64,000 nt of DNA from IMG/VR virus record IMGVR_UViG_3300023179_000021, positions 64,001 through 128,000 of that record. One strand, 5' to 3'. The DNA comes from a virus. Within the stretch, counting starts at the first letter, position 1; each line of letters starts with the position of its first letter. This document shows, piece by piece, positions 8,379 to 16,062 of the stretch. Made by a program: the position numbers and the translations under genes. Below the pieces are notes generated by a model. It searched no databases. It was given only the letters and a program-made list of their open reading frames with translations, and had not been told where the DNA came from.

Positions 8379-9439
8379 AAATATGTATTCTTGGTGACAC
8401 CCATTTCGGTGCTCGAGGTGATTCGCTAGACTTTCATCGGTACTTTCAGAAATTCTATGAAAACATTTTGTTTCCATATCTGGAAGAAAACAATATTAAA
8501 ACTATTTTTCAAATGGGTGATTTATTTGACCGCAGAAAGTTTATCAATTTTAATTCTCTTTTTTTAGCGAGAAAGTATTTTTTTGATGAAATAGTTGCAA
8601 ATGATATAACAATGTATACACTCATTGGTAATCACGACATGGCTTTTAAAAATACTTTAGAAGTCAATTCTCCGTCGTTGGTTATTAATGACTATAAAAA
8701 TGTTAAAGTCATTCAAAATTTCACAACAATTGGACTTGGTGATACTTTAATTGATGTTGTTCCGTGGATTTGTGATGAAAATAAAAACGATATAATTAAA
8801 AAAATTAAATCTTCAAAATCAGATATTTGTTTCGGGCATTTTGAAATCATGGGTTTTGAAATGGAAAGAGGCAGTATATGTGAGACAGGTATTGACAAAA
8901 AGATTTTATCCAGATATGATGTGGTTTTGTCGGGCCATTTTCACCATAAATCCACTCAAGGTAATATTACCTATGTTGGTACACCTTATGAAATGACATG
9001 GTCTGATTTTAATGATGTAAAAGGTTTTCATATTTTTGACACTGAAACTAGAACACTTGAATTTACGGCAAACCCATATACAATGTTTAATAAAATTATA
9101 TATGATGATTCAGAAACAAACTTTGAATTTTGGAAAGCCTATGAATATGATAAACATGCAAATACCTATGTAAAAGTTGTTGTGGTCAATAAACAAAATC
9201 CATATTTGTTTGATAATGTAATTGACAATCTATATAAAGCTTCTTGTGCTGATATTGCAATTGTTGAAGATTTTACTGATACACGAATTGAAGATGAAAT
9301 TGTTGACCAAGCTGAAGATACAATGACTATTCTTTCAAAATTTATCGATGCACTTGAACTTGATGTTGAAAATGATAAATTGAAAAAAGTGATGCGAGAA
9401 CTTTATGTTGAAGCATTGAATACTGAAGTTACTGACTGA
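8375..9439 (+). CDS. gp47: Recombination nuclease gp47 (Mre11/SbcD-like)
   Basis: GDTHFG, GDLFD, GNHD and SGHFH phosphoesterase motifs. Confidence 0.95.
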   Translation: MKICILGDTHFGARGDSLDFHRYFQKFYENILFPYLEENNIKTIFQMGDLFDRRKFINFNSLFLARKYFFDEIVANDITMYTLIGNHDMAFKNTLEVNSPSLVINDYKNVKVIQNFTTIGLGDTLIDVVPWICDENKNDIIKKIKSSKSDICFGHFEIMGFEMERGSICETGIDKKILSRYDVVLSGHFHHKSTQGNITYVGTPYEMTWSDFNDVKGFHIFDTETRTLEFTANPYTMFNKIIYDDSETNFEFWKAYEYDKHANTYVKVVVVNKQNPYLFDNVIDNLYKASCADIAIVEDFTDTRIEDEIVDQAEDTMTILSKFIDALELDVENDKLKKVMRELYVEALNTEVTD

Positions 9440-11151
9440 TGATAATTTTTCAAAAAATCCGTTGGAAGAATTTACTTTCAACAGGTAATAATTACACAGA
9501 AATTAACTTATCAACAAACACCAATACACTGATTGTTGGTGAAAATGGCTCAGGCAAATCTACAATGCTTGATGCTTTATGCTTTGGTTTATTTGGTAAA
9601 GCTTTTCGTTCAATTAATAAACCACAACTTTTAAACAGTATTAATCAAAAAGAATGTGTAGTTGAAATTGAATTTGAAGCCAATAACAAAACCTATAAAA
9701 TCATTCGTGGCATCAAACCAAATATCTTTGAAATCTATTGTAATGGCACTCTGCTTAATCAAGAGGCTGCATCAAGAGATTACCAAGAACACCTCGAAAA
9801 ATTTATACTGAAACTTAATTATAAATCTTTCACACAGATTGTTATTCTTGGTTCAGCTTCATTTACGCCGTTTATGCAACTTTCGGCATCTGACCGCCGA
9901 ACAATCATTGAAGACTTGCTCGATATACAAATATTTTCGACGATGAATGGATTAGTCAAAGAACGATTATCAGCCAATAAAGAAAGTACTTCATCTATTA
10001 AACATCAAATTGATTTATTTACCAAAGAATATGAGTTAAAAAAGAAACATATTGAAGACCTCAAAAAATCAAATGATGATGAGGTGAAGCGATATGAAGA
10101 AGAGATTCAAAATAATATTGAAACTATAAGTCAACTATTGGCAAATAATCAAGTTCTTACAATTAGAACTGAAGAATTAAATCATGAAATTTCAAATAAA
10201 ATTGATTGTGAAAACAAAATTAAAAAGATTACAAAACTTGAATCTCAAATTGAAAACAATATTTCCAAGTATGAAAAAGATATAAGTTTTTTTACAAATA
10301 ACAATGATTGTCCAACATGTAGGCAATCAATAGTTTCTGAATTCAAAGAAGAACAAATTAATTCTCTTGGTATTAAAAACAATGATTCTAAGGCCGCTCT
10401 TGAACAACTTAAAAGAAAACTTAAAGATGAACAAGAAAGGCTAAATGAAATCAATGAAACACAATCCTTGATTCAAAGTTTTGTTGTAAAAATTGCTACA
10501 AATAATACTTCAATCAATGAAACAAACAAGTATATTAACAAACTTCGTAAAAAAATTGAAGAACTTACCACGGACAAATCAAATACAGAGAAAGAAGGCA
10601 ACAACCTAAAAGAATTACAGGACTCTTTGTCTCAACTACAAGAATCGTTAAAAGAACTAATACAAGAAAAAGCATACTTAGAAGTGGCCTCAACGCTATT
10701 GAAAGATACTGGCATTAAAACAAAGATTGTCAAACAATATCTTCCAATTATTAACAAACTGGTCAATAAGTATTTAGCTCTTTTGGATTTCTTTGTGAAC
10801 TTTAACCTTGATGAATCGTTCAAAGAAACAATTAAGTCTCGGCACCGTGATGATTTTTCATATAATAATTTTTCAGAAGGTGAGAAACAAAGAATTGATA
10901 TGGCTCTTATGTTAACTTGGCGTGCTGTTGCTAAGTTAAAAAATTCAGCCAATACTAATTTATTGATACTTGATGAAACGTTTGATTCAAGTTTGGATGC
11001 CAATGGAACCGAATATCTAATGACAGTTTTACACACATTAGAGGGGGTAAATTTATTTGTTATTTCACATAAAGGTGATGTGTTGCAAGATAAATTCAGT
11101 AATGTTATTCGTTTTGTAAAGGAAAAGAATTTCTCTAAGGTGATAAAATGA
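9439..11151 (+). CDS. gp46: Recombination ATPase gp46 (Rad50/SbcC-like)
   Basis: GENGSGKS, CPTC zinc hook, FSEGEK signature, LILDE. Confidence 0.95.
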   Translation: MIIFQKIRWKNLLSTGNNYTEINLSTNTNTLIVGENGSGKSTMLDALCFGLFGKAFRSINKPQLLNSINQKECVVEIEFEANNKTYKIIRGIKPNIFEIYCNGTLLNQEAASRDYQEHLEKFILKLNYKSFTQIVILGSASFTPFMQLSASDRRTIIEDLLDIQIFSTMNGLVKERLSANKESTSSIKHQIDLFTKEYELKKKHIEDLKKSNDDEVKRYEEEIQNNIETISQLLANNQVLTIRTEELNHEISNKIDCENKIKKITKLESQIENNISKYEKDISFFTNNNDCPTCRQSIVSEFKEEQINSLGIKNNDSKAALEQLKRKLKDEQERLNEINETQSLIQSFVVKIATNNTSINETNKYINKLRKKIEELTTDKSNTEKEGNNLKELQDSLSQLQESLKELIQEKAYLEVASTLLKDTGIKTKIVKQYLPIINKLVNKYLALLDFFVNFNLDESFKETIKSRHRDDFSYNNFSEGEKQRIDMALMLTWRAVAKLKNSANTNLLILDETFDSSLDANGTEYLMTVLHTLEGVNLFVISHKGDVLQDKFSNVIRFVKEKNFSKVIK

Positions 11152-11723
11152 GTGAAGAATTTTTAGTTATTAATACAGAACAATCTTTGGTTAAGCCAAA
11201 AGCATTAGAACCATTGCCATTGTATGATGAAAACTATTCGATGTTGAAACAAAAGATGCCTGATTATACTGGTCAATTACCAAATCAAAATATGACCAAC
11301 CTCATTGAGCGTATGAAAATGACAATGAGAAAGTTTTCGGGCATTGGTCTTTCGGCAAACCAATGTGGTATTATGACCAGAATGTTTATTATTGGGCATG
11401 AAAACTTTGAACTGGTGTGTATCAACCCTAAGGTTCTTGGCCAATCGGCAGAAATAATTAAAGGCGATGAAGGTTGCCTCTCTTTTCCCGGTTTGTTTTG
11501 TAAGATAGAAAGGCCTGCATGGATCGATGTTGAATTTATGAATGAAAAGGGTGAGATTCTACAGACAAGACTTGAGGGTTTAACTGCAAGATGTTATTTA
11601 CATGAACTCGATCACATGAATGGAATTAAATTAATTGACCATGTTGGCCCTGTAGCTTTAAAAATGGCTCGTGAAAAACAAAGAAAACGTATTAAAACAA
11701 TTACTAAACGATTGAAAAAATAA
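11148..11723 (+). CDS. def: Peptide deformylase
   Basis: GIGLSANQ, EGCLS and HELDH motifs. Confidence 0.92.
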   Translation: MSEEFLVINTEQSLVKPKALEPLPLYDENYSMLKQKMPDYTGQLPNQNMTNLIERMKMTMRKFSGIGLSANQCGIMTRMFIIGHENFELVCINPKVLGQSAEIIKGDEGCLSFPGLFCKIERPAWIDVEFMNEKGEILQTRLEGLTARCYLHELDHMNGIKLIDHVGPVALKMAREKQRKRIKTITKRLKK

Positions 11724-13000
11724 TGTCTTACTCATTTGACCCTAAAGATGATGTTGATACACAATGGCAAAAATGGCGCGATTCTGGTTTAACTTTTCAA
11801 CAAATCGACGAAGAAAAACTCCGAACTAAAGTAATTGAAGAACTTACTTATGTTTCAAAGATGGATGTTAAAGAGTACACTTTGTATCAGAAATGGTGTG
11901 AGGTGCAAGAAAAATACCCTTCAACTATTATAAATGATTTATGGGAAGGCCAAAAATGTGTTCTGCAAGATGAAGATCAACGCCGCGCTATCGATGAAAT
12001 AAAACGCAATTTTTGGATACCTGAAACATCTGAAGCTTACGAAGCACTAGAACCAGAACTTCTTTACACCAATAAAGAAAAAGGTCTGCCTGAATTGTGG
12101 AATTGTATTCGCACATTCTCTTCAACAATGAAAAACAATTCAAACATCGGCCGTAATCTTAATTTTATTGTGCGTGATCGAATCACTAAGAAATATCTTG
12201 GTGTGATTTGTATTTCATCAGATTTTCTTGACCTCACACCAAGAGATAGGTACATTGGATGGTCAAGAGAATTAAAAACGCAAGGCGGTATGATTAATCA
12301 CACGGCCATCGGTTCAACAATTGTACCTTTGCAACCACTTGGGTTTAATTATGTCGGTGGTAAACTTCTTGCTCTACTTTGTCTTTCGGATCCAATACAA
12401 GAACTTTGGGAGAAATTGTACGGTGATAAGTTGGTGTCTATAACCACCACATCACTCTATGGTAAAACAAAGGCGGATGGTCTATCCCAGTATGACAATC
12501 TAGACTACTGGCAGAAAATGGGATTCACTTCAGGTTCCGTGTCGTATGAACCTACCAATGAAACAAGGTATATGATTCGTGAGTGGCTTAAAACAAATCA
12601 CACACGGAGATACTTTGAATGGTATATTGCGAAGAAACCATCTGGTCAACCACATAAACGTGACCATAAGAATCGTTCATTGACCTTTGCGTATTCTAAA
12701 CTCAATGTACCAAAAGAATTTATTAAATCTGACCATGCTCGTGGTATTTACTGGTGCCCTTTGTATGCTGAATCAGTAGAGTTTCTCCGAGGCGAACATG
12801 ACGGCAAGAATATGAAAAAATGTTTTGATTCTTCGATTCAAGACCTAAGTAATATATGGAAGAATAAACATGCAAGGCCTCGAATTAAACAATTAGTAAA
12901 AAAAGACCGTGTTTCACATGATACTCTTTTCTATGACAATTTGGCAACCTTGTCTTGGGAAGAAGCAAAGTCTATGTATCTTCAACAAGTTGGCAGGTAA
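11723..13000 (+). CDS. DUF4338/DruA-like, Mom-related GNAT-fold protein (putative DNA-modifying enzyme), copy 1
   Basis: GRNLNFIV.D, IVPLQPLGFNYVGGKLLALLC, TTTSLYG...SQYD and W.KMGFTSG motifs; paralog at 30988. Confidence 0.65.
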   Translation: MSYSFDPKDDVDTQWQKWRDSGLTFQQIDEEKLRTKVIEELTYVSKMDVKEYTLYQKWCEVQEKYPSTIINDLWEGQKCVLQDEDQRRAIDEIKRNFWIPETSEAYEALEPELLYTNKEKGLPELWNCIRTFSSTMKNNSNIGRNLNFIVRDRITKKYLGVICISSDFLDLTPRDRYIGWSRELKTQGGMINHTAIGSTIVPLQPLGFNYVGGKLLALLCLSDPIQELWEKLYGDKLVSITTTSLYGKTKADGLSQYDNLDYWQKMGFTSGSVSYEPTNETRYMIREWLKTNHTRRYFEWYIAKKPSGQPHKRDHKNRSLTFAYSKLNVPKEFIKSDHARGIYWCPLYAESVEFLRGEHDGKNMKKCFDSSIQDLSNIWKNKHARPRIKQLVKKDRVSHDTLFYDNLATLSWEEAKSMYLQQVGR

Positions 13001-13430
13001 AACCTTTATGAATTTTGTATTTACCTTTAGCCACATTGTACATACAACTTTCATAAAGATTATTTTCTTTACAGAATTTTTTAAGATTTTTAACCTTTTC
13101 GGTTTTACCGTCAGGAAAAGTTACTAACCAATTTTTCGAAAGTGTGTTTGCTATTTTATTTTTTTGTATTTGACTGTTTGGGATGCCTTTGTTCCAGGTT
13201 GTAATTCCTTTCAGAGCGAGACTTATTTTATCTTTAGATTCTTGTGTGTGTTTTTTGCCCAGATTAAGTTCTCTTAAGATTTGTTTTGTTGATTCGTGGA
13301 GTTTTTCTCCTTTAATTGCACCTCGATAAGACCAAACAGCATCATTTGGAATTTCTATTGGATTGTTTTTGATCCATTCACGCAGTTCTGTGGTCCAATC
13401 ATCATCTAGATTGTGAGAATAAATACTCAT
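12972..13430 (-). mobile_element. Free-standing homing-endonuclease-like gene with NUMOD3-type repeats and no obvious nuclease domain
   Basis: KKHTQESKDKISLALKG, WNKGIP and NLKKFCKENNL motifs; likely ATG at 13430 (MSIYSH) preceded by AAGGA; the only credible minus-strand gene in the window. Confidence 0.65.
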
Positions 13431-13508
13431 GCTGACATTCCTTACTAATGTTAGAGTGGGTGCAGACGGCAATCTGGCGACCCACACCTATATATGCCGT
13501 TAAAACTC

Positions 13509-13537
13509 TTGACAAATTACATATATATTAGTATAGT
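13509..13537 (+). promoter_or_regulatory. Sigma70 promoter driving the tRNA-like RNA
   Basis: TTGACA(13509)-17 nt-TATAGT(13532); predicted start a few nt before 13546. Confidence 0.75.
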
Positions 13538-13545
13538 CCAAATAT

Positions 13546-13611
13546 GCGGTGAGTCCGAGACAGCTTACCTTCCCAGTAGGCAGAGAGGTTTAACTCCTCT
13601 GAACCGCTCCA
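13546..13611 (+). tRNA. Non-canonical tRNA-Gly(UCC)-like RNA with a minimal D arm
   Basis: GCGGT/ACCGC acceptor stem + T-CCA; anticodon arm GCTTAC-CTTCCCA-GTAGGC; T arm AGAGG-TTTAACT-CCTCT; D arm reduced to GTC-CGA-GAC. Confidence 0.75.
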
Positions 13612-13615
13612 CTTC

Positions 13616-13697
13616 TGTTGTATAAAAACAACAAAAAAGTTTAATGAAATCAATGACTTACAAAGCGCTTGACAAATCACTGCGGCTAGAGTAAGAT
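13616..13697 (+). promoter_or_regulatory. Promoter region: TGTTG-N8-CAACA palindrome, IHF-consensus site and sigma70 promoter
   Basis: Palindrome 13616-13633; AATCAATGACTTA (WATCAANNNNTTR) 13648-13660; TTGACA(13669)-17 nt-TAAGAT. Confidence 0.6.
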
Positions 13698-13725: not shown

Positions 13726-16062
13726 ATGTCATTTACTGCTGAACAAAAATCGCAACTTGCCAAACTGATGGCGACCGAGAATTTGACGGTTCAACACCAG
13801 AAAATTTCAACAGCCAAATTTGATCCTAAAAACCGTGTATTGTATCTCCCAATCTGGCAGGATATGTCTGGTGATCTTTATGATCTCTTGGCAGGCCATG
13901 AAGTTGGTCATGCTCTTCATACTCCCGCTGAAGGTTGGCACAATGCTGTAGTTGACAAAACAAAGCCTGCTTCATACAAAAACTTTTTGAATGTCGTTGA
14001 AGATGCTCGTATTGAGAAAAAAGTAAAGCGCCGGTATCCTGGTCTTCGCTTGCCTTTTCAGAGAGCATATAAAGAGCTTTTCGACCGTGATTTTTTTGGT
14101 ATTCGGAACCGTGACCCTAATAAATTGCCTTTTATCGACCGTTTGAATATTTACTCAAAGTCACAATACACTGCTTCGTTCCTTGAATTCAATGAGCGTG
14201 AACTTGATTTTGTTGATAGAATTCAAAAAACTGAAAGCTGGGATGATGTTGTTGCCTTGACCAATGAAATTTTCGAATACTCAAAGGAAGAGCAATCTCA
14301 AATCCAACATACTGATTTTGATCCAGACAATTATGGTGAAGATGGTTTTGATGAAGATTCCGCTTTTGATGAAGTTGACCAAGATGAAGATGGTCAAAGT
14401 CAAAACGGTACCAAGTCTAAGGCTGGTGATGAAAACGAAGGTGATGAATCGGAAGCCGAGGGTGATGGTGGTGCCGATGGTTCAAATGACAAAGGCGAAA
14501 CTGGTGAATCTAAAGGTTCTCGGCTGAATCGTTTCAAGGACTCGGAGGAATCTGATGAAGATCAATTTGAGCCAGAATGTATTACTGATGAAAACTTCCG
14601 TAAAAATGAAGACTTATTGCTTGATGCACAAAGCAAACCTTTTGTTTATGTAAATGTGCCAAAATTCAATGCGAAACATAGCATCACGCCAGCAAGCCGT
14701 GTGGTCGAACAAATCAATGATTATTATACAAAAGGATTTTCGCTCACGGAAGTTCTATCTGCGGCTGATATCCAAAAATTGATCGGCGATTTCAAAAATC
14801 GAAATGAACGGTATATTGGTTTACTTGCTAAAGAATTTGAAATGCGTAAAGCTGCCAAAGCTTTTAGTAAGTCTAAGTTGTCCGACACCGGCGATATTGA
14901 TGTTGCTAAACTTTCATCTTACCAGTTTGATGACAACATTTTCCGCAAAGTGATGTTGACACCAAAAGGTAAAAATCATGGTCTTATGTTGTTACTTGAC
15001 AAATCGGGTTCCATGGCCGATAACATGCCTGGTTCAATTGAACAGATTTTGATTCTTGCTATGTTTTGTCGCAAAGTGAATATCCCGTTTGTGGTGTACG
15101 GATTCGGTAGTTCCTATCGTGCTCGGAAGACTGATTTTCCTGGAGAGTACCTTAAGAATGATGATGGTTCGGGAAAAGTTTTTTCTGCTCATAGCAATGA
15201 TCTCCGTTTCAGTGAAGTTTATCTCCGTGAGTATCTAAATTCAAGCATGTCAAACATGGAATTTATGTCGGCTGTCAAAGCTTTGTTGTTACTCAAGCGG
15301 TCATTTGAAATGAAATGGCGCTCCAGTCGGCCCGATTCAGAAGATTTATCGAATACTCCGTTGACCGAGGCTGTATTTGCTTGCACTCATTTGATGCAAA
15401 AATTCCGCCAAAAACACAACCTAGACCTTTCAAGTTTGGTGGTTGTACATGATGGTGATTCAGACTCTATTGGTTCTTTTTATCAACAAAGTGAACCTGG
15501 ATTGAGTAAGTACACCAACAGTTTCAGTACAATTATTCATAACGTGATTGTTCAGGATCGCCAAAACAAATTTGAGTATAAGTTGAAAACTCCTGATCCT
15601 TCGAAGGCTCACTTTGATCCAATGCTTCTGTGCGCTATTGAGTATTTCAAACAGCTAAGTAATTCAAAGGTGTTTGGTTTCTTCTTGACAAGCGGCAGTC
15701 GTGGTAGTGCAAAGGCTTCAATTATGAACCGCTATGTGTTTGACGATGGCGAAAACTTTGAATCTCTTGAAAAGAAAGCTTTCAGAAGCCATAACTATAA
15801 TGAAAAAGCTCGTGTCAATCAACAATTAGATTTGATGGTGAAGAAGTTTAAAGCTGAGAAGTTCCTGATCAGCAAACCAAAAGGCTACAATGAATTTTAT
15901 ATTGTGGCTGGTGGTGATGAATTGGTTACCGAGGCTGATGAAATGGAAATCGAAGGCAAAGTGACCTCATCCAAATTGAAAGCCGCCTTTTTAAAGATGA
16001 ACAAAAAGAAAGCCATCAATCGTGTTTTGGTCTCCCGTTTCATCCAGGGCATTGCCGCCTGA
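13726..16062 (+). CDS. CobT-like VWA protein with an N-terminal HExxH metallopeptidase-like domain
   Basis: HEVGH, NVVEDARIE, acidic linker, MIDAS DKSGS, TPL and HDGD. Confidence 0.85.
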   Translation: MSFTAEQKSQLAKLMATENLTVQHQKISTAKFDPKNRVLYLPIWQDMSGDLYDLLAGHEVGHALHTPAEGWHNAVVDKTKPASYKNFLNVVEDARIEKKVKRRYPGLRLPFQRAYKELFDRDFFGIRNRDPNKLPFIDRLNIYSKSQYTASFLEFNERELDFVDRIQKTESWDDVVALTNEIFEYSKEEQSQIQHTDFDPDNYGEDGFDEDSAFDEVDQDEDGQSQNGTKSKAGDENEGDESEAEGDGGADGSNDKGETGESKGSRLNRFKDSEESDEDQFEPECITDENFRKNEDLLLDAQSKPFVYVNVPKFNAKHSITPASRVVEQINDYYTKGFSLTEVLSAADIQKLIGDFKNRNERYIGLLAKEFEMRKAAKAFSKSKLSDTGDIDVAKLSSYQFDDNIFRKVMLTPKGKNHGLMLLLDKSGSMADNMPGSIEQILILAMFCRKVNIPFVVYGFGSSYRARKTDFPGEYLKNDDGSGKVFSAHSNDLRFSEVYLREYLNSSMSNMEFMSAVKALLLLKRSFEMKWRSSRPDSEDLSNTPLTEAVFACTHLMQKFRQKHNLDLSSLVVVHDGDSDSIGSFYQQSEPGLSKYTNSFSTIIHNVIVQDRQNKFEYKLKTPDPSKAHFDPMLLCAIEYFKQLSNSKVFGFFLTSGSRGSAKASIMNRYVFDDGENFESLEKKAFRSHNYNEKARVNQQLDLMVKKFKAEKFLISKPKGYNEFYIVAGGDELVTEADEMEIEGKVTSSKLKAAFLKMNKKKAINRVLVSRFIQGIAA

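Follow-up and report, generated by a model that had tools for sequence, protein, structure and literature searches.

In a 64,000-nucleotide stretch of viral DNA (positions 64,001 to 128,000 of the IMG/VR record IMGVR_UViG_3300023179_000021; the window, whose positions serve as coordinates below unless another locus is named), a 66-nt RNA with the outline of a tRNA-Gly is encoded at 13546–13611, beyond a gene for a DruA/DUF4338-family protein at 11723–13000. The source genome is that of an aquatic T4-like phage of 145.6 kb, its nearest named relatives are Pelagibacter myophages and Kyanoviridae, and it carries in all one ordinary tRNA (Met) and one copy of the 66-nt RNA. The locus raises the question of what such an RNA is for: whether it decodes glycine codons, serves the enzyme encoded beside it, or does something else. 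Comparison with its relatives indicates that the RNA is a reduced descendant of tRNA-Gly, which keeps the positions read by glycyl-tRNA synthetase (GlyRS) and has lost those used in decoding.

Reality and ancestry of the 66-nt RNA

Folding with RNAfold returned exactly the structure drawn in the initial annotation: a 5-bp acceptor stem (GCGGU/ACCGC) plus G·A and A·G, a short arm of 3 bp closed by 3 nt (GUC-CGA-GAC), a stem of 6 bp below the loop CUUCCCA, a T-like stem of 5 bp whose loop is UUUAACU, and finally U-CCA. The promoter proposed there (TTGACA-17-TATAGT) matches the sigma-70 consensus at 11 of 12 positions and ends 8 nt before the RNA, with the predicted start 0–2 nt before G13546; a -10 box lies 8–10 nt upstream of G1 in every relative copy. 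Taken by itself, the fold of the single sequence was within chance (z = -1.72; 9 of 200 shuffles folded equally well). ARAGORN in bacterial mode found no tRNA gene in the window, and the RNA region gave no tRNA with Rfam (RF00005) at E up to 10, the single match being a chance one to a snoRNA. ARAGORN in metazoan-mitochondrial mode called the RNA 'mtRNA-Gly(tcc)', a call that was rejected as evidence because this mode also calls tRNAs inside coding sequence. A blastn search with the RNA against 50,697 phage records returned nothing relevant.

The case that the RNA is real therefore rests on conserved homologues and covariation rather than on the single-sequence fold. From IMG/VR, 80 related loci were collected by way of the protein (72–96% identical to that of the window), 76 of them with enough downstream sequence. 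An RNA of the pattern GCGG...CCGC-U-CCA was present within 1.8 kb downstream of the DruA-like gene in 75 of these 76 loci. It begins 21–66 nt past the DruA-like stop codon in 71 of the 75 (21–24 nt in 34 relatives); three others have an insert of ~545 nt like that of the window, and one (L073) has two oxygenase-like genes in between. When the 29 distinct homologues of the window's form (type A) were aligned, 34 of 66 positions were invariant and 91% of cells in the proposed structure were paired. Compensatory double changes were found in 10 of the 20 pairs, a level matched by none of 500 shuffles and approached by no slid control. The covarying pairs comprise 5-68 (U-A/A-U), four of five in the anticodon stem and three of five in the T stem, so that acceptor, anticodon-like and T stems all covary. 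The window RNA scored 82.6 bits against model R1. These comparisons indicate that the 66-nt RNA is transcribed, structured and under purifying selection. The family is real, widespread, missing from Rfam and invisible to tRNA finders, even if no enzyme partnership is assumed. Of the tandem G·A pairs noted earlier at the base of the acceptor stem, only the G6·A67 mismatch is conserved, as 16 of the 29 sequences have an ordinary A-U pair at 7-66.

A series of forms leads from an ordinary tRNA-Gly to the RNA of the window. The most complete, a 74-nt near-canonical tRNA-Gly(UCC) accepted by ARAGORN, occupies the same slot in L015. Forms of 67–70 nt with a short D hairpin, the loop (U)GUCCAA or GACCAA, and the T loop UGCGAAU or UGCAAAC occur in L016, L056, L079 and L051, and further versions of the D and T arms in L022, L037 and L046. 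The window's clade has forms of 63–68 nt with the D arm GUC-CGA-GAC, the T loop UUUAACU and, in place of the anticodon loop, usually CCCC or CCCA. This loop is 4 nt long (CCCC/CCCA) in 22 of the 29 distinct homologues and 5–6 nt in others; the window, with 7 nt, stands apart. The UCC anticodon to which attention had been drawn is accordingly peculiar to the window's own loop and is not a kept feature of the group, although 7-nt loops, where they occur, always read UCC, ACC or CCC, all of them glycine anticodons.

In at least five loci (L069, L077, L064 and L082 are examples) the RNA is present as two differing versions in tandem. Such pairs stand 3 nt apart (L069 1361–1500; L077 5273–5412; L064 5339–5478; L176 412–550); the loop is of CCCC type in the first RNA and of GUCCA type in the second, and each RNA ends in U-CCA. 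This arrangement suggests either two specialised carriers or a duplication in mid-divergence.

Conservation across types was assessed with 22 diverse representatives of all forms. Invariant in 22 of 22 were G1-C72, C2-G71, G3-C70, G4-C69, U73, CCA, one loop C and G53-C61. The second loop C was kept in at least 90% of the 22, and both loop cytosines (C35 and C36, which are C27 and C28 of the window RNA) are invariant in the 29 type-A sequences. Glycylation is determined by G1-C72, the second acceptor pair, U73, C35 and C36 (PMC7826273), and the deacylation of glycyl-tRNA by DTD is largely decided by the discriminator base (PMC6097841). The GlyRS identity positions G1-C72, C2-G71, G3-C70, U73, C35 and C36 are invariant or nearly so through type A, type B and canonical forms, which bears out the initial annotation on this point. 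Features of decoding (G18, G19, C56, the 7-nt loop and U33) are gone or vary freely, and the window RNA has no elbow pairing between D-loop G18 G19 and T-loop U55 C56. In the T stem, A49-U65 is found in 24 and A51-U63 in 26 of the 29 sequences, and pair 50-64 is C-G or G-C; in staphylococcal non-proteogenic tRNAGly, A49-U65, U50-A64 and A51-U63 have been tied to weak EF-Tu binding (PMC7826273). This pattern of conservation suggests that selection has preserved the requirements of GlyRS and of some user of the acceptor end, but none of those of the ribosome. The RNA is probably a chargeable, non-decoding derivative of tRNA-Gly.

The DruA-family gene and its linkage to the RNA

The features of the locus are as follows.

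9439–11151: gp46/SMC-like nuclease subunit
11148–11723: peptide deformylase
11723–13000, plus strand: DruA/DUF4338-family gene, 425 amino acids (Pfam PF14236, PADLOC DruA, AlphaFold2 model)
12972–13433, minus strand: homing-endonuclease-derived open reading frame, 153 amino acids, NUMOD3 modules only (Pfam, PHROG)
13001–13520: insertion of ~520 bp that L003, the closest relative, does not have (blastn, window versus L003)
13509–13537, plus strand: sigma-70-type promoter of the RNA
13546–13611, plus strand: 66-nt tRNA-Gly-derived RNA, type A (fold, comparative alignment, model R1)
13616–13633: palindrome TGTTGT-N6-ACAACA, 3' of the RNA
13669–13697, plus strand: predicted peptidase promoter
13726–16062, plus strand: 'peptidase' gene, 778 amino acids, HExxH motif, CobT-like (phrog_459, E = 1e-170)

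The DruA-like gene, two genes after gp46 in the window, was recognised as such by Pfam (DruA/DUF4338, PF14236; E = 7e-20, 71.8 bits against a cut-off of 27, profile positions 44–297 of 297), in agreement with the DUF4338-like gene that had been placed just upstream of the RNA, and by PADLOC (DruA, E = 4.8e-18). A search of 1.8 billion cluster representatives yielded 908 homologues, of which 58 were aligned for AlphaFold2. The model (predicted local distance difference test score, pLDDT, 95.3; predicted template modelling score 0.92) comprises an N-terminal helical domain of ~100 amino acids, a GNAT core at about residues 104–358 and a C-terminal helical part. Among 48,161 PDB representatives compared with VIA-align, Mom of phage Mu (8bv8_B) came first (Z 9.7, root-mean-square deviation 4.1), with 173 of 202 residues aligned over model residues 104–358; FemA was matched at Z 8.0 by way of the common GNAT fold. 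In the viral structure library BFVD, true homologues came first and Mom was the first named match outside the family. The GNAT fold sought as a check on the earlier proposal is thus present, with Mom as top solved neighbour but only slightly ahead of other GNATs, and DUF4338 has been called a GNAT independently (PMC10853773). The N-terminal residues 1–103 folded alone gave a pLDDT of 73 and no structural match above Z 3.8; a winged helix for this domain was a guess that found no support. Structural homologues in BFVD include proteins of giant viruses (A0A3G4ZXG3, A0A5K0UAJ3 and A0A3G4ZRA1, from Faunusvirus, Yasminevirus and Dasosvirus), some of them within proteins of >1100 amino acids.

Among loci retrieved by the RNA pattern, the DruA-like gene preceded the RNA in 72 of 72 cases, and in 65 of 65 the peptidase gene followed it. 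Adjacency cannot name the partner of the RNA, because both neighbours are invariant in the clade. A second start was made from the peptidase of the distant Pelagibacter phage HTVC008M, which led to 39 loci (29–100% identity). All seven evaluable HTVC008M-like contigs with a DruA-like gene carry an aberrant tRNA-Gly(ACC) (26–31 bits with model R2) whose D hairpin has 6 bp and a tetraloop, whose T loop is AGCGUUA and which has U73-CCA; it lies after CobS, ~4 kb from the GNAT gene. In HTVC008M this is the sole tRNA-like gene of the genome (L002 9658–9731; record 91140–91213). Its anticodon ACC is rare, it has neither D-loop GG nor T-psi-C, and it is absent among the GenBank features listed for that stretch.

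Where peptidase and CobS genes occur without a DruA-like gene, no such RNA was found in 14 of 14 evaluable loci; one further locus (L253) holds an ordinary Arg/Gly/Leu tRNA array. Similarly, the cyanophages S-RIM4 and ACG-2014d, which have no DruA-like genes, have no RNA upstream of the peptidase gene. Assignment of the RNA to the peptidase/CobS pair was rejected on account of these 14 loci and two cyanophages, and the peptidase is probably a constant downstream neighbour and not part of a system with the RNA and the DruA-like gene. In L087, from another lineage (~45–49% identical), a relative of the RNA, driven by a promoter, lies 2.9 kb away from the DruA-like gene. In S-SSM7 a single tRNA-Gly(UCC), set apart from the tRNA cluster, lies at a distance of 3.2 kb from the DruA-like gene. 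The expected linkage thus stood in its co-occurrence part (75 of 76 loci, and none of the 14 lacking DruA), but adjacency within the clade is synteny and several phages with DruA-like genes have no RNA. That the RNA serves the DruA-like GNAT is an evenly balanced matter.

Searches directed at more distant phages were negative: model R1 had no match anywhere in the genome of Mosig, no homologue of the RNA was present in the intergenic region that follows the DruA-like gene in either Mosig or HTVC008M, and in scans of viral contigs with distant homologues P0029 returned nothing. Mosig (L001 6590–6640) and HTVC008M (L002 5790–5830) have in common a conserved hairpin (GCUGUGCGA..UGACGCA(G)CC), situated just past the DruA-like/MazG genes, where the window's clade has the RNA.

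The insert of ~520 bp fills the exact interval between the DruA-like stop codon and the -10 box of the RNA, and its right end provides the TTGACA -35 box that now serves the RNA. The antisense open reading frame matched NUMOD3 (Pfam, E = 2.8e-6) with no nuclease domain, and its matches to PHROG families of HNH/homing endonucleases were confined to their C-terminal parts. Judged by these matches it is a homing-endonuclease remnant, much as the initial annotation had described the insert. L034 and L036 have an insert 71% identical to it (blastn), and a gap of ~545 nt between DruA-like gene and RNA was seen in about 6 of the 72 loci of the RNA-pattern search. The two genes that separate DruA-like gene and RNA in L073 (5294–6588) are 2OG-Fe(II) (2OG, 2-oxoglutarate) oxygenase-like; in the same region of Mosig, 2OG oxygenase genes lie upstream of the peptide deformylase gene. 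Nearly all relatives have the palindrome behind the RNA and, inverted, a second time ~2.5 kb downstream, past the peptidase gene. A terminator scan gave nothing at 13616–13633, where the palindrome is followed by no T-run, and the palindrome may be an operator rather than a terminator.

Possible uses of the RNA

We tentatively favour a reading, its probability falling just short of even and each of its steps inferred, in which the reduced tRNA-Gly is a private glycine reservoir for the adjacent GNAT. The RNA would be transcribed from its own early-type promoter and trimmed by RNase P and 3' exonucleases to G1...CCA. Host GlyRS would charge it, reading G1-C72, C2-G71, G3-C70, U73 and the two loop cytosines. 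The charged RNA would be a poor substrate for EF-Tu and the ribosome because it has no D/T elbow, the T-stem pairs A49-U65 and A51-U63 and, in relatives, mostly loops of 4–5 nt. The activated glycine that it holds would instead be set aside for the DruA/DUF4338 GNAT, and this enzyme would pass on the glycyl group in the manner of Mom, Fem and leucyl/phenylalanyl (L/F) transferases. The likeliest acceptor would be phage DNA, whose bases would acquire a Mom-like modification protecting it from host nucleases.

The gene contexts of homologues point to DNA as the acceptor. In cyanophages, DruA-like homologues lie between the clamp-loader genes gp44 and gp62, and one was annotated 'methylcarbamoylase mom' by its depositor; others adjoin DNA polymerase or UvsX, sometimes as tandem paralogues. 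Two tandem DruA-like paralogues stand directly upstream of the DNA polymerase gene in L212 (127–2591), L213 and L085/L086, and L214 has one copy only, flanked by the genes for DNA polymerase and UvsX. Bacterial homologues occur in Druantia and in DndF fusions (PMC10853773). Peptide deformylase and the peptidase are encoded in the same neighbourhood, as is ribosomal protein S21 in pelagiphages, so that the acceptor may also be a protein, as it is for L/F transferase. That the product is a DNA modification must be considered rather doubtful. The general proposition that aquatic T4-like phages possess a two-part DNA hypermodification system, consisting of a DruA-family GNAT and its own glycyl carrier RNA, a tRNA-Gly pared down to the parts required by GlyRS and the transferase, is likewise speculative and well below an even chance.

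A number of observations weigh against the glycine-reservoir reading. Every element of it, from charging and escape from EF-Tu to the transfer reaction and its acceptor, is inferred, and the donor of a GNAT is unreadable from its fold, as has been stated for Mom itself (PMC13219725). Ordinary acetyltransferases matched the model at Z 8–9, barely below Mom. Foldseek matches in the PDB were weak (Mom probability 0.97, E = 0.08) and nearly all to GNATs. The initial annotation had DUF4338 sharing Mom-like motifs, which profile comparison did not uphold: hhalign of 59 DruA-like against 26 Mom (PF25680) sequences gave a probability of 0.15%, relaxed local hhalign also found nothing, hhalign against Mu Mom alone aligned only an RGVY tetrapeptide (probability 1.3%), a PDB profile search made no sequence link between the two, and a Pfam scan of the 11723–13000 product reported DruA only and no Mom PF25680. 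In the model, the likeness of the DruA-like protein to Mom is at the level of the fold only, and barely above that to other GNATs. As to the locus, the order of DruA-like gene, RNA and peptidase gene is fixed within the clade, which gives adjacency little independent weight, and all insertions fall between the GNAT gene and the RNA and none between the RNA and the peptidase gene. In the Synechococcus phage S-CREM1 the gap between gp46 and peptidase holds a canonical tRNA-Ala(UGC) (L220 7818–7890), and because an ordinary tRNA is found there, this gap is to be seen as an insertion hot spot. No RNA was detected in the analysed sequence of several phages with a DruA-like gene (Mosig, L232, L242, L084, L085/86 and L212–214); their lack of it would be compatible with use of host Gly-tRNAGly, as by Mom, and also weakens the link. 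The co-occurrence comes from just two or three lineages rather than from many separate events.

What, then, might the RNA do if it did not feed the GNAT? It could be a decoy or sponge that mimics the acceptor and anticodon cues of tRNA-Gly and, during infection, titrates a host factor independently of the DruA-like protein. Candidate targets are a tRNA-directed defence toxin (such as a GNAT of the TacT type, which acetylates Gly-tRNAGly, or a nuclease that attacks the acceptor or the anticodon), GlyRS, or a deacylase. The confinement of conservation to recognition elements (acceptor, U73, CCA and the loop CC) while the decoding parts decay would suit such a role, as would the strong early-type promoter, the two differing tandem versions in some phages and the occurrence of DruA-like genes without the RNA; the substrate of TacT is Gly-tRNAGly (PMC13219725). 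But the RNA was found only in phages with a DruA-like gene and in none of the 14 DruA-less relatives with the same neighbours, and no tRNA-Gly-directed defence is known in the likely hosts, so that we regard a decoy as unlikely. The linkage data would serve equally well if the RNA were the substrate of the GNAT, acylated from acyl-CoA on a base, as by TmcA, or on an aminoacyl group, or if it were a cofactor or guide. Most of the GNATs closest in fold use acetyl-CoA, and tRNA-modifying GNATs are known (TmcA, TacT and AtaT; PMC13219725). However, such a role gives no reason for keeping the precise GlyRS identity set including U73 and C35/C36, and the family is without a clean Q/R-x-x-G-x-G/A motif for CoA, having QPFGxN in its place (read by eye from the family consensus); we consider it improbable.

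There are two further explanations. tRNA-like elements act as processing signals in mitochondria and in MALAT1, and the fold might similarly be cis punctuation, that is, a signal for RNase P and 3' processing that ends the upstream mRNA or insulates the downstream promoter. The RNA always lies between two genes, and in the 34 relatives mentioned above it follows the DruA-like stop codon by 21–24 nt, as this would lead one to expect. On the other hand, U73-CCA and the loop cytosines are not required for a processing signal, each copy is preceded at a constant distance by a -10 box of its own, and the RNA is placed elsewhere in HTVC008M and L087; we give this explanation about as little credence as the preceding one. 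Lastly, the RNA might be an ordinary, degenerate phage tRNA-Gly(UCC) that supplements decoding of GGA/GGG codons, as suggested by the 7-nt window loop with U33 and UCC and by the near-canonical tRNA-Gly at the same site in L015. This is hardly credible in view of the 4–6-nt loops of the closest relatives, the missing G18, G19 and C56, the rejection by ARAGORN and Rfam, and the free variation of loop length while the stems covary. Taken as a whole, the interpretation in the initial annotation, a glycine-carrier RNA hidden from EF-Tu together with an enzyme that transfers glycine to DNA, is partly supported.

Relation to known systems

Our search of the literature found no paper on this RNA or one linking DUF4338 to tRNA. 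If the glycine-reservoir reading is true, evolution can strip a tRNA to a pure amino-acid carrier, the 66-nt RNA would be the first virus-encoded dedicated aminoacyl-carrier RNA, and the natural series from canonical to minimal forms would map the needs of GlyRS and of the transferase. DUF4338 proteins in general, Druantia DruA included, would be aminoacyl-tRNA-dependent modifiers of nucleic acids, a concrete and testable biochemical hypothesis for the family. It would also follow that freshwater and marine myophages, which are abundant, have a DNA modification derived from glycine and not yet described, or some other glycylated target, and this would bear on restriction, sequencing and host-range studies of these viruses. 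We know of no modified base in these phages.

The closest solved structure is Mom of phage Mu (PF25680, 8bv8), an enzyme with the catalytic residues R111 and S124, which moves glycine from Gly-tRNAGly to the N6-adenine of double-stranded DNA, where an on-base rearrangement yields carbamoylmethyl-adenine (PMC13219725); the statement in the initial annotation that Mom uses Gly-tRNAGly is thereby confirmed. Like Mom, the DruA-like protein is phage-encoded and has a single GNAT domain with insertions, a Gly-tRNA donor is implied for it, and its homologues stand in DNA-centred contexts. Unlike Mom, with which it showed no sequence or profile similarity, it is 425 amino acids long with extra N- and C-terminal domains. 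Mom also differs from the phage locus in using host tRNAGly isoacceptors and encoding no RNA.

Type I Druantia DruA belongs to the same family as the phage protein by hidden Markov model. In contrast to Druantia, the phage gene stands alone between deformylase and peptidase genes, and its neighbours, which also include the SMC/gp46-like gene and CobS-like genes, comprise no druBCDE (the genome beyond was not searched for DruE). To our knowledge no function is known for DruA itself.

For the RNA, the nearest parallel is provided by the non-proteogenic tRNAGly species NP1-3 of Staphylococcus aureus, which feed FmhB/FemA/FemB (PMC7826273). These dedicated tRNA-Gly paralogues donate glycine to a GNAT-fold transferase off the ribosome and, like the phage RNA, retain the determinants for GlyRS, depart from the usual tRNA in the D and T arms and carry the A49-U65 and A51-U63 pairs. 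They are full-size, with 7-nt anticodon loops, and act in the cell in peptidoglycan synthesis through two-domain Fem enzymes, whereas the phage RNAs are 63–69 nt long with mostly 4–5-nt loops, have no elbow and adjoin no Fem homologue; in place of the two GNAT domains of a Fem partner, their neighbour is a single-GNAT DruA-family protein. Viral tRNA-like structures and D-armless mitochondrial tRNAs resemble the phage RNA in having a minimal acceptor/T minihelix with CCA and in being missed by standard tRNA finders; they can be charged without canonical tertiary contacts, as the phage RNA would be. The tRNA-like structures of plant viruses form the 3' ends of genomic RNAs, whereas the phage RNA is a separate small transcript of a DNA phage; and mitochondrial tRNAs still decode, whereas the phage RNA is mostly without a usable anticodon loop.

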